Virus record (IMG/VR): IMGVR_UViG_3300031787_000064
Location: 15,662 to 79,661 of that record
DNA: 64,000 nt
Strand: one strand, 5' to 3'
From: a virus
Shown here: positions 14,093 to 61,353 of the stretch, piece by piece
Layout: every line of letters begins with the position of its first letter
Position numbering within the stretch: position 1 is the first letter of the stretch
The notes under the pieces: model-generated
What the model was told of the DNA's origin: nothing
Database searches by the model: none
What the model saw: the letters and a program-made list of their open reading frames with translations, nothing else
Position numbers and translations under genes: made by a program

Positions 14093-16006
14093 TTATTTTT
14101 TAAATGTTTCGTTATAATATAGTTTACCGTTACTGCACTCTGATATGTCCTTTGATTTGTCTGGATCAGACTGTCCATCTTTATAACCATCGTTATAGGT
14201 TTGGATTAGTTGATTCTCCTCCATTTGTTTGGCTTGTTCAAGTATATCAGTAGATACATAACCAATCTTTGTTGTCATTTTAGCAAACCATTCTAATGCT
14301 GTTTGTTTTTCCATTTTACTACCAAATTTTTTAATAAAGTTTTCGTCTGTCTTTAGTTTCTTATTGAACTCATTTTGAGTATATGTGTCATAGTAGTACT
14401 GCACATGATCTTCTGTTTGTTTAAGCCATGTATGAATAAAGTCCCAGTCCCACTGAGTATCTCTTGTGAATTGAATGTAGTCTAGGTACTCTTTTGTGAA
14501 TCTTGGTTTTGCCATAAGTTTAAGATAGTTCTAAAAGATCAACAATAGGGCAAGATACAAAACCAGTACTAACCTCTCTTTTCACAGGTCCTACGATATT
14601 GTTATCCATCAAGAATCCAAGAACTCCTTCGTTCTCTGAATAGTTCTTGATAATAACTTCTCTATTAGTGAGATCAACATCTGGAATGTTTACCGTTGCA
14701 GTTAACACAGGTTCACCTGTCTCTGCATCAGATAATTCAATTGCTGTTCTACCATTAGAGTATTTCAAAAACTCTATTTGTACGTCATAAGCTCCGTACT
14801 CACCTACAAACTTGTAAACTCTACTTTTTGTCATAACTATTTAATTTAATTTTTTACCAACTTGATTGATAGTAATAATCTGCCTCTTCGTCCCAATCTT
14901 GAAGGATACTCTCTAATGCTTGAATAGTATTATCGATTTGACGAAAATAGTATTCATCGTACTCTTCACTACCAAAGAAACATCCATTAGAAACAGGAAG
15001 GAAACAAGGCGCGTCGATCGGCTCTTCTTTTACCTGATAACATAAGTCTAGTAACTCTGTAAGATTTTCTTTAGTTACATAATATTGACTACAATTATCT
15101 TTACCATCTTGAACGTTGTCAACAAACCAACCATGAATTTGATTGGCCTTTCTCCAATACGCAGCTTGCTCTTCAATGTAGGTAATTTTGTTTAGGTCAA
15201 TACTAGTACAAGGTTGACCTCCTCTAGTTATTACTACATCGTACTGTTTTTCAGCAGGCGTATAATCCCATTTTCTTACATACGTTCTCTTACTCAAATA
15301 CATGTCTAATCCCATAACTTTTATTTTTTAGTGTTTAACATATTCTCTTTTGCCATATTCATTAACCTAGTTTCACGTGTACCATACATCCAATGAAACA
15401 ATAGATCGTTAACTAACTCAGCATAAAACTTTGGATCGTTCTTAATGTCTTCAAGAGTAGGCTCGAATGCATCTTCTACTTGTTGACTACGATCAACGTA
15501 ATTAAAGTCTAGATAAGGATTGTACCTTTTGTTTGGTGCAAATACAGAAGTTGTTGTCATAACTTTTATTCTTTTACTAGTTTGATAATCTTGTTCCCTA
15601 CATATTTAGGCGTATTCATTTCATTGAACTTGGTCTTGGCATATACCATGATACCGGCGTCTTCTTTGATCTTTGACCAATCGACCCCTCTTTCCTTTAG
15701 ATAAATGTCTAGTGCACGAAACGCTGAATCGATATCGTTGTGTGCCTCTTCAAACATAAAGACCTGAGAATAGTCATACTCCTCTATTAGCTTAGCTCCA
15801 TTTTCAACACATAAATTTCCAAAGCAATCAGTATAGACACTACAACCATCTTCTATATTGACTAATGCTAGAGTCAATTCTGAAGGATCAAATGAAGTAT
15901 TACTAAAATTGTCTTTTAGTTCATCGAACTTAACTAGTGCTCTACCAACACTTGTAAAATAATCTTGTGTGAAATAATCTGGGGTGTTGAAATAAACTAG
16001 ATACAT
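14093..16006 (-). other. Five hypothetical CDSs (14093-14515 with a C-terminal KQTA..W module, 14520-14834, 14854-15315 of MGLDMYL type, 15321-15560, 15566-16006)
   Basis: ORF track; several preceded by an A-rich AAGTT-ATG start context. Confidence 0.6.
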
Positions 16007-16027
16007 AACTTTTATTTTTTTGTTTAG

Positions 16028-16099
16028 AAGTCAGAGCAGGATTCGAACCTACATCTCTCACCTACTATAGTGAGGCGTTACCATTTACGCTACCTGACT
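16028..16099 (-). ncRNA. tRNA-like element with a non-canonical anticodon arm
   Basis: Acceptor AGTCAGG/TCTGACT, D-arm GCGT-AAATGGTA-ACGC, T-arm GTAGG-TTCGAAT-CCTGC; anticodon stem CTCAC/GTGAG closes 8-nt TATAGTAG. Confidence 0.75.
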
Positions 16100-22354: not shown

Positions 22355-22942
22355 TCACTTCTTGTACCTGCACCTGTCAAAATGCCATTGTTTCATGGCG
22401 CTTCCTTTTCCTTTCTTTAAACAGTGCGGACACGTATACACGGGACGAATATCACCAGCATATTTAGGACATTTATCAAAATGATATTTTTTTGCATTAT
22501 TAGATGCTGTTTTAATTCCACAATGAGGACATTCAATATGGCTGTATACTTTTCCTATGCTAGCTTCTTTTATTTTATTTTTATGTTCTTCAGACTTAGG
22601 TTTTCTCATTCTCATTTTTGTTTCCTCAGTCTTAGGTTTTTTCATTCTACTCTTATGGTATTCTGATAAAGGCTTGCCTGTTTTAAATTCACTAATCTTT
22701 TTATTTATATGAGCTCTTTCTTCTGGTGTCATGTTTAATCTTTGACTTATTAAGTGGGCTGCGCAATATTCACCTTTATCATAATGAATTTGATAATGCT
22801 CTTTTAATGGAAGTGCAATAAGATTAAATATATTATTGTTATTTCTATCACCATCAATGTGATGGATATCATAAGTCACTCCATTTTCATCAACTGGTAT
22901 CGGTCCGTAATAATCAGACCATATTTTTCTATAATCAGCCAT
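22355..22942 (-). CDS. Free-standing HNH homing endonuclease (HNH + NUMOD3-like repeats + two CPHC zinc modules)
   Basis: IHHIDGDRNNN...NL...EH..IH; probable true start MADYRK at 22942, since the upstream in-frame extension is the RNA leader. Confidence 0.85.
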   Translation of the reverse strand: MADYRKIWSDYYGPIPVDENGVTYDIHHIDGDRNNNNIFNLIALPLKEHYQIHYDKGEYCAAHLISQRLNMTPEERAHINKKISEFKTGKPLSEYHKSRMKKPKTEETKMRMRKPKSEEHKNKIKEASIGKVYSHIECPHCGIKTASNNAKKYHFDKCPKYAGDIRPVYTCPHCLKKGKGSAMKQWHFDRCRYKK

Positions 22943-23055
22943 AAAATAAAAATGGACCCAGAGGAAGTAAAGGTCCCGGAATGACCGATACTCCATGAGT
23001 CCAATAAATTATTGTAGATAGTTGATTCCGGCAACTTTCTATCTATAATAAATAT
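22943..23055 (-). ncRNA. Two-hairpin kissing-loop leader RNA, copy 1
   Basis: Loops CCGGAAT (23025-31) and ATTCCGG (22976-82) are exact complements; architecture repeated at 61235-61346. Confidence 0.75.
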
Positions 23056-23056
23056 C

Positions 23057-23806
23057 TTACTTTTTAAAATCTATAAATTCATTACCATCTTCTTGACTCA
23101 AATGATCTTCTTTAGACTTAAATAATACATCTCCAGATCCATCTAATCCGAGGTTTTTAAGATGTGTATAATAAAAATCATCGAGTTGGAATAACTCTTG
23201 TGCATCTTCTTTTATCTCTGGTGCATCTATAGGCATTGCTTCTAGACGTTGTAGCATTTTGTTTGAGAACGGATCTTCTATGAACAAGAAGTAACAATTG
23301 TAGCAAAGCCATCTTAGGTTCTCTATTCTCCAGTCACTACGTTTACCGTTAACAAAGTTAAGTAGTAAAGGTGCTTTCATATCTGTCAATCTCTTCTCAC
23401 TGAACTTACATGTTGCACATTGGTAACCTAGTCTACCATCTTTCATTAGAAGTTCTTTCAACCTTATAATCTTCTTGGTATTGATAGGTTGATTCTCTAC
23501 TAACATGTCGTCTAGATTCTTCTTCCACTGTCCACCTACCCAGTTCTTAGGCATACCTTTGCCTGCTTGATTCTTGTGTAGTTCGAACAAGCTTTTGCCT
23601 GTAGCTTCGTCTATATGTTTCTTTGCATACTTCTTGTATGTAACATCTGTAATGCCAAGCCATCTAGCAGCTTCTTTATTGCTTCTAGTATTAGCCATGG
23701 CTTCTCTAATTCTTTCTGGAGATAATTGCAGGCCTCGGTTCCACCAGGTTTCTGGTCTAACGCCTCTAGCCATATTTTCTTTCGTGAAGTTATATTGCTT
23801 GCTCAT
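23057..23806 (-). CDS. HTH plus degenerate HNH/zinc-finger protein
   Basis: SNKEAARWLGIT HTH; CATC...NG...DWRIENLRWLCYNC lacks the catalytic His residues. Confidence 0.65.
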   Translation of the reverse strand: MSKQYNFTKENMARGVRPETWWNRGLQLSPERIREAMANTRSNKEAARWLGITDVTYKKYAKKHIDEATGKSLFELHKNQAGKGMPKNWVGGQWKKNLDDMLVENQPINTKKIIRLKELLMKDGRLGYQCATCKFSEKRLTDMKAPLLLNFVNGKRSDWRIENLRWLCYNCYFLFIEDPFSNKMLQRLEAMPIDAPEIKEDAQELFQLDDFYYTHLKNLGLDGSGDVLFKSKEDHLSQEDGNEFIDFKK

Positions 23807-46878: not shown

Positions 46879-46881
46879 TTG

Positions 46882-46963
46882 TGCCCCAAGAGAGACTCGA
46901 ACTCTCACATCTTTCGATACTAGATCCTAAGTCTAGCGCGGCTGCCAATTACGCCATCGGGGC
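46882..46963 (-). tRNA. tRNA-Leu(TAG)
   Basis: Cloverleaf, CTAGA-CTTAGGA-TCTAG anticodon arm, long variable arm; no encoded CCA. Confidence 0.95.
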
Positions 46964-47080
46964 AGGTGTTAGTCTTTTGATCTACCATAGAGATCTACAG
47001 GTACTCCGAAGAGCGCTAACACCCCTGCTACAGATAATTTGAATATAACTATTTACGTTAATAAAGAACTATTGATCTTA

Positions 47081-47356
47081 TTAGTGTCCATGAATAAATA
47101 AGCTGATCTCGATCCCTAATAAAGATCCTGCAACTCCACCCATTGCATAACCAAACCACAAGTGCCAACTATCATCTGACTTGGCGATCTTCTTAATAAC
47201 AAAGAAGCTAAATGTTGCTAATAGAAAATCTGATGTAGCAGACCAAAAGTAATTTGCTTGCGCAACTGCCCGATAGTTAACAACCATCATACCATAGTTT
47301 AGAGTTTGTATTCCAAACATAATAGCTGCGTCACCAATATCTTTCCAGGTTTTCAT
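47081..47356 (-). CDS. Small membrane protein
   Basis: Three hydrophobic segments, GY..GG..G..LG. Confidence 0.6.
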   Translation of the reverse strand: MKTWKDIGDAAIMFGIQTLNYGMMVVNYRAVAQANYFWSATSDFLLATFSFFVIKKIAKSDDSWHLWFGYAMGGVAGSLLGIEISLFIHGH

Positions 47357-47365
47357 AACTTTGTT

Positions 47366-47824
47366 TTAAATTGATAAAATGTCTTGGTGTCTTTTTATGA
47401 TGTCTCTAAGTTTTTTAGCATAGCCTCTTGACTCAGAGTATTTTCTATCGATAAAGTTTATATATTGTGATCTAGTCATTTTTCTCTTTCTCATCATGAA
47501 CTCTTGATAGAGTGCATAGTCTTGAACAGAATGCATCCATGTTTCATAGACAGCAAATCCACGTTCATTCTTTCTGATGGCAACAGTCTCTCTTACATTA
47601 GGCATCATCATACCAAATAAGTTGTTTGCTTCTTTACAGGTCTGGCTTTTGAAGTGACCTGTTTCAAGAATGGCTTGAGCAAATGCAATCTCTGGGTACA
47701 TGATGTCCATTGCTTTAATGGTCAACCATAGATTTTCTTTAGTTAATAGACCAAGATCATTCTTAGCTTTTGTGTGAGGCATAAAGCTCGATAACACCAA
47801 CAATAAAATGATTAGCTTTTTCAT
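47366..47824 (-). CDS. Secreted glucosaminidase/muramidase (GH73-like)
   Basis: Signal peptide; AQAILETG, NNLFGM, Y.....Y. Confidence 0.8.
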   Translation of the reverse strand: MKKLIILLLVLSSFMPHTKAKNDLGLLTKENLWLTIKAMDIMYPEIAFAQAILETGHFKSQTCKEANNLFGMMMPNVRETVAIRKNERGFAVYETWMHSVQDYALYQEFMMRKRKMTRSQYINFIDRKYSESRGYAKKLRDIIKRHQDILSI

Positions 47825-47839
47825 GTTTATTATTTTTAG

Positions 47840-47910
47840 ATGTCCCTCTAGGATTCGAACCTAGACTAAGTGGACCAAAACCACTTGTGCTACCGTTACA
47901 CCAAAGGACA
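47840..47910 (-). tRNA. tRNA-Gln(TTG)
   Basis: AGTGG-TTTTGGT-CCACT anticodon arm, GGTTCGAATCC. Confidence 0.95.
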
Positions 47911-47968
47911 ATGTAAGCCGACTTTCGTCGACCTACGTGGCGTCAATGCTTATCGCACCGTCTTCAGG

Positions 47969-48040
47969 TACTCGGTACGAGAATCGAACTCGTATCACCA
48001 CCGTGAAAGGGTGGTGTCCTAACCGTTAGACGAACCGAGC
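47969..48040 (-). tRNA. tRNA-Glu(TTC)
   Basis: CCACC-CTTTCAC-GGTGG anticodon arm. Confidence 0.95.
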
Positions 48041-48046
48041 AAGGAG

Positions 48047-48123
48047 TCGGGTTGGCTGGATTCGAACCAGCGAGTTCTCCACATCCCAAATGTGGCGGGG
48101 TAACCGGACTCCCCAACAACCCG
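48047..48123 (-). tRNA. tRNA-Pro(TGG)
   Basis: CCACA-TTTGGGA-TGTGG anticodon arm, 5' CGG. Confidence 0.95.
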
Positions 48124-49632: not shown

Positions 49633-50067
49633 TGGTGGAGGAGACGGGACTCGAACCCGTGTATCCATAAGGAACAATAACACCAGCGTATCACATGCTT
49701 AGTACTGAATTGTAAGAGACGTGGGTAGTAGCTTTTATCTCTTCTTTGCTCCATCAGTCTTGCGACCAACTCTGTACTGTAATTTGGGGACGTCGGTTTT
49801 GGTCGACGTCGCTTCCACCACCTAATTTTTTAGCGGAAACTAGGAAAACCAGAGTGCTGTTCTGTTGCAAGGCTATCAGCTGCCCCTGCGAGGATTAGGC
49901 TGCTAGAGCGAACTCCTCATTGAAGATAGAAGCTAAAATAGCTTCACCTTCAGCAATACGTTCTTGACGTGTTGCATTTATTTGTTGATTGTTTGTTTAA
50001 AGACGACACGACCAACCGTCTGCATGTAGTGGTACCTTCACATTACGGAGCAATACCTGGCTCCCCC
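49633..50067 (-). ncRNA. ssrA: tmRNA
   Basis: Acceptor GGGGGAG/CTCCTCC-ACCA with G3-U70, T-arm ACGGG-TTCGAGT-CCCGT, tag ORF 49895-49975 after ATAAAT ending FALAA*. Confidence 0.95.
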
Positions 50068-60295: not shown

Positions 60296-60695
60296 ACTTC
60301 TCTACTTGTATAAATTGTTTAAGAAAGTTAATACCTTCAGTGCTTCTGTATTCATTCAAATATACAACACGTTTGATTCCGGATTGCAGTATAAGTTTAG
60401 AGCAATCTAAACATGGGCTAAGTGTTAAGTACAAAGTAGACCCATCTACAGAGTTGCCTGTTTTGGCAGCTTTTAAGATTGCTCCCATTTCCGCATGAAC
60501 AACATATGGTAAAGTAACATTGTCTTTTTCACAACAATTATCCATTCCTGGAGGTGTGCCATTGTATGACATGCTTATAATATTACCGTCTTTAACTAAT
60601 ATTGCACCTACTTTAGATCTATTACATTTAGACATAGTAGATATCTCTTTAGCTATGTTTAAAAAAATAGTATCTAGTTGTTTTTGGCTTGGCAT
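60282..60695 (-). CDS. dCMP deaminase
   Basis: YNGTP.G..N, HAE..AI, SPC..C. Confidence 0.9.
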   Translation of the reverse strand: MPSQKQLDTIFLNIAKEISTMSKCNRSKVGAILVKDGNIISMSYNGTPPGMDNCCEKDNVTLPYVVHAEMGAILKAAKTGNSVDGSTLYLTLSPCLDCSKLILQSGIKRVVYLNEYRSTEGINFLKQFIQVEKYEVQ

Positions 60696-61234
60696 ACTCT
60701 TCCTTTTTTATATCCTTCTGGTATTTCTTTACCTTCTTTGATTAATATGTTGTTGACTCCGTTTGTATACCAATGCTTGGGGTGGTACTTTCTTGGTAAT
60801 AAGCTAATTCTTTTGAGATGTCCTGATTCTACATTGTTCTTTCCTTGCATTGCTCCACCTTTTATACAAACTTCTCTTCTAAGTTCTTCATTAAAAAAAC
60901 AGTTTAGTTTGTTTTCTCTACATACTTTAGCTGCAATTTGTCCAGCCAGTTTGTTATCAGACATGGATTGTATTTTTTTCATGAAGCCAGAATCTGCATT
61001 TATTTTCCCTTGTCTTTTTCCATTCATTGATCTTATTTCATTAATCAACTCTTCTTTTGATATTTGCCCAGATAAACATCTCCAAGCAATAAAGTCTTCT
61101 TGCATACCATATTTTTCCCATAATAGTCTATGCTCTTCTGCATGTTCTTCTAATGTTACTAGTTTTATATTTGAGGGATCATCAGATCCTCCTGCGTGTT
61201 TAGGTACTATATGGTGTTTGTACAATTTATTCAT
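60674..61234 (-). CDS. Free-standing HNH homing endonuclease
   Basis: HHIVPKHAGGSDDPSN....EEH...H; C-terminal WYTNG...GY.KGR module; probable true start MNKLYK at 61234. Confidence 0.85.
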   Translation of the reverse strand: MNKLYKHHIVPKHAGGSDDPSNIKLVTLEEHAEEHRLLWEKYGMQEDFIAWRCLSGQISKEELINEIRSMNGKRQGKINADSGFMKKIQSMSDNKLAGQIAAKVCRENKLNCFFNEELRREVCIKGGAMQGKNNVESGHLKRISLLPRKYHPKHWYTNGVNNILIKEGKEIPEGYKKGRVCQAKNN

Positions 61235-61346
61235 AAAAATAAAAGGTCCCAAAAAACAGAGGAGCTACTACCTTCCTAAGTCTTAGGGGACCAATAAGTT
61301 TATTATAGATTGTTGGTAGTAGCAACATTCTATCTATAATAAATAT
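61235..61346 (-). ncRNA. Two-hairpin kissing-loop leader RNA, copy 2
   Basis: Loops CTACTAC (61316-22) and GTAGTAG (61265-71) are exact complements. Confidence 0.75.
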
Positions 61347-61353
61347 CTACAAC

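Follow-up and report, generated by a model that had tools for sequence, protein, structure and literature searches.

Homing endonucleases are selfish and may harm the phage in which they reside, and their restraint is known mainly from T4, in which single hairpins hide the ribosome-binding site. The locus described here raises the question of what restrains such genes in a host lineage that seemingly does without Shine-Dalgarno pairing, and it points to a different solution, a compact two-hairpin RNA closed by a 7-bp kissing helix. The window, a stretch of 64,000 nucleotides (positions 15,662 to 79,661 of IMG/VR virus record IMGVR_UViG_3300031787_000064, which spans 79.7 kb), holds two homing endonuclease genes, each with a leader of about 112 bases in front of it; the record has these two copies only. 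Both copies lie on the minus strand and follow one plan, from a promoter-like 9-mer, ATATTTATT, through hairpin 1, hairpin 2 and a U tract to the ATG.

The original prediction had described copy 1 as two hairpins with complementary 7-nt loops, and the letters, the hairpins and the loops CCGGAAT and ATTCCGG all proved to be as stated. By sequence reading, the whole leader occupies 23056-22943 on the minus strand, as do all its features. The stop codon of the upstream gene lies at 23059-23057, and one base later starts ATATTTATT (23047-23055), which, as had also been claimed, overlaps the 5' arm of hairpin 1 (23009-23051, from folding and covariation). Hairpin 1 consists of a 12-bp AU-rich lower stem with one A/C mismatch, a GAAA bulge and a 4-bp GTTG/CAAC upper stem, topped by the 7-nt loop CCGGAAT at 23025-23031. 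A conserved unpaired linker at 23004-23008, for which alignments A3 and A5 give the family consensus AACTTATT, leads into hairpin 2 (22953-23003; fold of -23.7 kcal/mol, z -4.4). This hairpin rises in three tiers, an 8-bp GC-rich basal stem, a 6-bp middle stem and a 4-bp upper stem, to the 7-nt loop ATTCCGG at 22976-22982. The U tract (22943-22952), which is conserved across all leaders, directly abuts the start codon of a 195-aa HNH homing endonuclease gene (22355-22942, ATG at 22942; Pfam HNH_3, 2.2e-09; PHROG intron-like DNA endonuclease, 1.2e-23). The 249-aa gene on the upstream side of copy 1 (23057-23806, minus strand) also matches HNH endonuclease PHROGs (8.6e-11); it has no kissing leader, and in L064 it precedes a different leader.

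The same architecture, with loops CTACTAC and GTAGTAG, had been claimed near 61.2 kb before a dissimilar HNH gene, and we found it there. Copy 2 (61235-61347, minus strand, as matched by model R1) has ATATTTATT at 61338-61346 and the U tract at 61235-61244 by sequence reading; folding places hairpin 1 at 61299-61343 with the loop CTACTAC at 61316-61322, and hairpin 2 at 61245-61292 with the loop GTAGTAG at 61265-61271. The protein encoded behind it on the same strand (60674-61234, 186 aa; Pfam HNH, 8.6e-04, under the curated cut-off; PHROG homing endonuclease, 1.3e-08) differs from the HNH_3 protein behind copy 1. Its cassette sits between the dUTPase and dCMP deaminase genes, and according to the ORF table the 3' end of the nuclease gene overlaps the deaminase start. 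Between the two copies, hairpin 1 is near-identical save for its loop and hairpin 2 is dissimilar in sequence; a 20-mer common to both occurs twice against 0.06 expected. The predicted folding energies of the two leaders are -32.0 and -32.8 kcal/mol, with z of about -4 relative to shuffles, and model R1 scores the copies at 141.5 and 65.4 bits, all leader features being present in both.

Relatives of the leader were gathered with DNA patterns that fixed the arms of hairpin 1 only, so that the loops and the entire hairpin 2 were unconstrained; the scans covered viral contigs and metagenome contigs, and duplicates and reverse-strand matches were dropped. This yielded 62 distinct leaders with 21 different loop pairs. 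In every one of them (62/62 leaders, 21/21 types) the apical loops of hairpins 1 and 2 show perfect Watson-Crick complementarity over 7 nt or more, and homologs devoid of loop complementarity were absent from the set. Cognate loops match at 7/7 positions, whereas non-cognate combinations match at 3.5/7 on average and never at all seven. Fifteen pairs of loop types are separated by a single difference at a compensated position, and position 6 of the hairpin 1 loop is A throughout the 62 distinct leaders. The GC content of the loops is 54%, as opposed to 28% for the remainder of the leader.

For a formal count of covariation, a covariance model was built from 11 gap-free leaders with the two hairpins included and the pseudoknot left out; 37 model matches (33 distinct) were aligned, and the kissing helix was added afterwards for pair counting. 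MAFFT followed by RNAalifold on 24 leaders had misaligned hairpin 2 and so recovered the fold just in pieces, and the model-based alignment was used instead. Across its 33 distinct leaders, compensatory changes occurred in 6/7 kissing pairs and in all five stems. Both-sided changes affected 4/4 pairs of the hairpin 1 upper stem and 7/8, 5/6 and 4/4 pairs of the hairpin 2 tiers, and the hairpin 1 lower stem was 96.5% paired. Altogether 93% of cells were paired, compared with 30-41% when partners were slid by one to three columns, and none of 500 shuffles matched any of the observed covariation measures; the few unpaired kissing cells came from rows with shifted loops. The complementarity of the loops is therefore selected and not a product of chance, as the original prediction had held. 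An extended duplex formed by the two apical stem-loops was considered and rejected, as the stems are unmatched past the loops; the sole exception is the CTACTAC type, with one additional G-C on either side of the loop pairing.

The stems also reveal which strand folds. Cells of the G-U type (42) outnumber those of the A-C type (11), and thus the fold belongs to the nuclease-sense strand, that is, to RNA. A purely DNA-level element, such as a cruciform or a recombination signal that aids movement of the cassette and has no role as RNA, would account for the near-perfect DNA palindrome of the hairpin 1 lower stem, for homology blocks that stop at the leader borders and for a palindrome-type deletion in one copy (L107). 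The roughly fourfold excess of G-U over A-C is, however, strand-specific and points to RNA, and the fixed distance and orientation relative to the ATG fit an mRNA leader; we consider the DNA-level explanation very improbable.

The leader constitutes a well-supported structured-RNA family that is missing from Rfam. A search of Rfam, whose families include HEARO, kissing-loop riboswitches and ribozymes, gave no match at gathering score in the window and none at E values up to 10 on four leader loci, in keeping with the original prediction, which had recognised no described family. Blastn of the leader against 50,697 GenBank phage records found no match, and a literature search for a kissing loop or covarying RNA motif associated with phage homing endonucleases found no description. 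The leader is not mentioned in the main text of PMC10690425, the supplementary catalogue of which (more than 10,000 motifs) lay outside our search.

The association of the leader with endonuclease genes, likewise part of the original prediction, turned out to be strict. An ORF with an HNH or GIY-YIG N-terminal signature follows 60/62 leaders, and the two remaining ORFs, a truncated remnant of 40 aa and a 5-aa stub at a contig end, are too short to judge. Pfam and PHROGs assigned the downstream ORFs to HNH_3, HNH, GIY-YIG, NUMOD modules and 'homing endonuclease' families, and the leader module is common to at least four nuclease families. The spacing is narrow: the nuclease ATG lies 104-116 nt past the TTTATT that opens hairpin 1 (mode 110), and most leaders start 1-14 nt past the stop codon of the upstream gene. 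The truncated remnant belongs to L106 (4305-4427, minus strand), in which an intact leader with loops CTCTAAC/GTTAGAG stands before a nuclease ORF cut to 40 aa; this is probably a decaying cassette.

Leader and nuclease are nevertheless separate units. The loop CCGGAAT is found ahead of HNH_3, of a second HNH type and of three GIY-YIG-like N-terminal clusters; in turn, one nuclease occurs with different loops, and among relatives different leaders are found behind one and the same upstream gene (PolA, dUTPase and others). In a comparison with RNA-library sequences, namely contigs of four metatranscriptome runs, one contig matched the window at 22939-23057 alone, which is exactly the leader, and its flanks were unrelated. 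Two leaders on a single 169-kb metagenome contig (L151:52-170 and L191:8819-8937) are identical over 117 nt and precede unrelated nucleases, one HNH and one GIY-YIG; their identity begins right past the upstream stop and ends at ATGG. These twins are evidence of leader copying or nuclease swapping inside one genome. Since the leader is a separate module, its loops are not element-specific barcodes, and that part of the original prediction has to be abandoned: the same loops accompany different nucleases, the same nuclease accompanies different loops, and twin leaders share one contig. In sum, the leader is structured, covarying, modular and exclusively tied to nuclease genes.

The number of leader copies ranges from 0 to 6 or more per genome, with six on one 52.7-kb fragment. 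The notion that all loops must differ within a genome holds for this six-copy fragment, where by our own arithmetic (14 loop types were then known) it would be expected by chance in about 29% of cases; it is refuted by the 169-kb contig with its two identical leaders. A contig of a related phage in one RNA-library run joins position 22364 of the window directly to 23168. This junction omits 22365-23167, so that the nuclease gene and its leader are missing, as are about 110 nt of the upstream gene; that relative therefore either lacks the cassette at this place or has another one.

Not every carrier retains a complete hairpin 1. L107 (3284-3374, minus strand) has lost the hairpin 1 core of about 30 nt between the palindromic arms; its hairpin 2 and U tract are intact, and so is the HNH ORF, at least at its start. 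L245 (1385-1503, plus strand) is a divergent leader in which the lower stem of hairpin 1 is unpaired, whereas its apical stem and a complementary pair of loops, CTCGTAC/GTACGAG, persist. These losses show that a cassette can be carried, at least for a time, without an intact hairpin 1. Kissing leaders are not general for the GIY-YIG family: two-hairpin matches with complementary loops occurred in 6/63 non-canonical upstream regions of GIY-YIG relatives versus 13/204 controls, which is no enrichment, and L245 is the only true divergent member among these 63 regions.

How the two loops might meet is suggested by the proportions of the fold. The apical stems are 4-5 bp long, and under each of them lies a hinge: hairpin 1 has a bulge of four purines there, hairpin 2 a 2x2 internal loop. 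Some 13 stacked pairs follow in each hairpin, the two are about equally tall, and a conserved linker of 9-10 nt joins their bases. In this geometry a 15-bp rod made of stem, kissing helix and stem, together with the two 13-bp arms, should be able to close a triangle, and pairing within one molecule is thus sterically reasonable. Loops of 7 nt that are fully complementary are, on the other hand, the classic design for kissing between molecules, and the order of promoter, hairpins and U tract is the layout of a small RNA gene. Hairpin 1 of one leader RNA could accordingly pair with hairpin 2 of a partner, giving a concentration-dependent switch or the assembly of a stable small RNA released by termination at the U tract. 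We regard such pairing as rather improbable: the matched hairpin heights, the matching hinges and the fixed-length linker fit intramolecular closure, a nuclease ORF invariably follows the element at a fixed spacing, and its variable copy number is unlike that of a packaging or housekeeping RNA.

Known kissing RNAs offer points of comparison. The pRNA of the phi29 family is a phage RNA with two complementary loops that covary among relatives; it is encoded by one gene per genome, and its loops pair between molecules to build the ring of the packaging motor. Our leader resembles it in having two complementary loops that covary between relatives, and differs from it in heading nuclease genes, in multiple or no copies, at 104-116 nt from the ATG. 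In ColE1 RNA I/RNA II and R1 CopA/CopT, loops of seven nucleotides pair at every base with the complementary loop, but these are antisense pairs from opposite strands that act in trans on replication. The leader shares the fully complementary seven-nucleotide loops, whereas its two loops belong to a single sense-strand transcript and are separated by about 44 nt, with a G-U to A-C ratio of 42:11. In plant RNA viruses, hairpins of the 5' UTR form kissing loops with distant 3' cap-independent translation elements. Here the likeness is one of covarying loop-loop pairs in a single mRNA and of expression control, which for the leader is our reading; the plant-virus case, unlike the leader, concerns eukaryotic RNA viruses, kilobase distances and the activation of translation.

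The 5' end of the module is formed by the 9-mer, which is not confined to nuclease genes. On the gene strand of the window, ATATTTATT occurs 11 times, compared with 3.5 occurrences expected on both strands, and it stands 3-21 nt ahead of the ATGs of other genes, whose A-rich leaders past the motif are unlike the nuclease leader. A cultured relative has the 9-mer 20-40 nt ahead of groES, phoH and a structural gene. Judged by this distribution, ATATTTATT is probably a phage promoter of late or middle type. Several cassettes carry a second copy ahead of the next gene: in L004 (2860-2878), and also in L123, L007, L109 and L114, a further ATATTTAT(T/A) lies past the nuclease stop, 3-30 nt before the next gene, and some cassettes are thus bracketed by two promoter-like motifs. 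In other phages, many relatives of the GIY-YIG nucleases are without a structured leader, and ATATTTAT(T/A) stands a few bases ahead of their ATG. Among these leaderless relatives, L261, L262, L272, L281 and L301 share a GC-rich conserved element, TTGGTGTGCCCCTTGGATTT, just before ATATTTATT and some 25-50 nt ahead of the nuclease ATG; this element is a candidate small hairpin or terminator.

The overlap of the 9-mer with the 5' arm of hairpin 1 invites comparison with T-even phages, in which hairpins in the leader, late promoters embedded there and internal terminators keep the expression of nuclease genes low (PMC2988022). There, leader hairpins with an embedded late or middle promoter precede I-TevI, I-TevII, I-TevIII, segB and Aeh1 mobE (PMC2988022). 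An analogous timing switch would work as follows: read-through transcripts form hairpin 1 and stay silent, and transcripts from the embedded promoter, which are without the 5' arm and cannot kiss, are expressed. Given that the 9-mer elsewhere stands 3-21 nt from the ATG, transcription that began a few bases past it would leave out the lower stem of hairpin 1; the motif also precedes structural genes in the cultured relative, and the arrangement parallels that of I-TevI, segB and Aeh1 mobE (PMC2988022). Two results nonetheless speak against the switch. There is no Shine-Dalgarno sequence ahead of the nuclease ATG, either in the window copies or in the collected leaders, and hence no ribosome-binding site to sequester. 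In addition, hairpin 2 and the start region are predicted to fold alike in long and short transcripts: in folding predictions for 27 leaders, the unpaired probability of positions -12 to +6 was similar in the long and the 5'-truncated transcript, with no transcript-dependent masking of the start site. We therefore judge a timing switch to be unlikely, and the translation lock raised in the original prediction, if of the I-TevI type, is unsupported on the same two grounds.

The 3' half of the leader offers another means of restraint. All copies have a GC-rich basal stem of the GGNCC type with a U run that starts 0-2 nt behind it, bearing out the earlier impression that hairpin 2 and the U tract resemble a terminator, and the U fraction is 0.68 in the 14 nt ahead of the AUG. 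The attenuator that the original prediction had offered as one reading is thus a plausible one. The leader most likely keeps nuclease production low. We think there is an even chance that it does so in cis, as a modular 5' leader RNA that serves free-standing homing endonuclease genes as a tertiary-locked attenuator; in this model, that the 9-mer is an active promoter, that transcripts terminate, which way the regulation runs and what the kissing contact does are all inferences. The module would start with the phage's own promoter-like 9-mer directly behind the upstream stop codon. Its GC-rich 7-nt loops would form a 7-bp Watson-Crick kissing helix, and hinges and linker would close the fold into a rigid frame. 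The GC-clamped hairpin 2 with its U tract could then serve as an attenuator at which most transcripts, whether they enter from upstream or from the module's own promoter, would end before the AUG. Only read-through transcripts would carry the AUG, in a U-rich, atypical initiation region beside a stable structure. With few such transcripts and a weak initiation region, little nuclease would be made. The kissing contact would lock and insulate the fold, allowing the module to work in any genomic context in which the cassette finds itself.

At about 50 nt and with internal loops, hairpin 2 is unlike the short canonical terminators of these phages, which counts against the attenuator. A simple terminator scan did not call hairpin 2 and the U tract in the window, because of these internal loops. 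Termination, moreover, cannot be complete: in copy 2, as in two relatives, the dCMP deaminase gene begins before the nuclease ORF ends, and no promoter motif lies between them. Further points against the attenuator are the like folding of long and truncated transcripts and the natural variants L107 and L245, with their losses in hairpin 1. A more specific version of the attenuator would represent a new type, in which tertiary docking of its loop with that of an upstream hairpin determines how efficiently an intrinsic terminator acts, the whole being a portable, context-proof module that moves among unrelated nucleases; this we put forward only tentatively. If it is true, the integrity of hairpin 1 would set the amount of nuclease, through the choice of promoter or through ribosomes finishing the upstream gene 1-14 nt away.

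The pattern of conservation would also suit an element of RNA processing or stability. The lower stem of hairpin 1, the bulge and the linker are near-invariant in sequence and the rest of the leader drifts, as expected for a protein recognition site, and the kissing helix is essentially Watson-Crick only. The locked fold or a quasi-continuous 15-bp helix might be cut by a double-strand-specific RNase; alternatively, the leader might be a protective 5' cap, determining how long the nuclease mRNA lasts and keeping it apart from the upstream message. In T4-type phages, seg and mob transcripts are known to be processed by RNases (PMC2988022). The overlapping 9-mer, however, also accounts for the invariant 5' arm, and pairing to that arm for the 3' arm, and the conserved U tract would be left without a role, so that processing or stability seems to us an unlikely function, if one to be taken seriously.

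The attenuator model and the T-even leaders probably serve the same purpose by a different architecture. As in T-even phages, the ORF of a phage homing endonuclease is immediately preceded by a stable RNA structure, and a phage promoter motif, putative in our case, is contained in the 5' arm (PMC2988022); the presumed purpose in both is to keep a risky nuclease low or late. T-even leaders are single hairpins that bury a Shine-Dalgarno sequence, whereas here there is none and the start region is unburied. Unlike them, the present module has two hairpins joined by a covarying 7-bp loop-loop helix and serves several nuclease families alike. A further parallel for the start region is seg43(25) of Aeromonas phage 25, where a strong hairpin abuts the initiation region and does not cover it (PMC2988022). 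The internal terminators of T4 mobE and segF resemble our proposal in that a hairpin and U tract limit nuclease transcripts, as we suppose for the leader, but they lie inside the coding region (PMC2988022). No second hairpin or tertiary contact has been described for seg43(25), mobE or segF (PMC2988022).

With 21 naturally orthogonal loop pairs on one conserved scaffold, the family is a natural system for the study of tertiary RNA contacts and compensatory evolution, and the kissing leader is a candidate source of insulated expression parts for Bacteroidota. The carriers of the leader are a clade of Flavobacterium-type freshwater phages. For the PolA encoded beside one leader, the nearest counterpart, at 57% identity, comes from the 160-kb myovirus Flavobacterium phage vB_FspM_immuto, all others being below 28%; because this nearest PolA comes from a Flavobacterium phage, the host is probably Flavobacterium or another member of the Bacteroidota. 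The missing Shine-Dalgarno sequences and the A-rich leaders of other genes fit a Bacteroidota host. vB_FspM_immuto, the cultured relative, has no nuclease gene between PolA and groES and no leader copy in a model R1 search, yet its PolA-groES intergenic space does hold ATATTTATT. Elsewhere on the minus strand of the window are a tRNA gene (16027-16099), the anticodon of which ARAGORN left unassigned, a cluster of four tRNA genes (Leu, Gln, Glu and Pro; 46881-48123) and a tmRNA gene with a tag peptide ending in ALAA (49633-50067).
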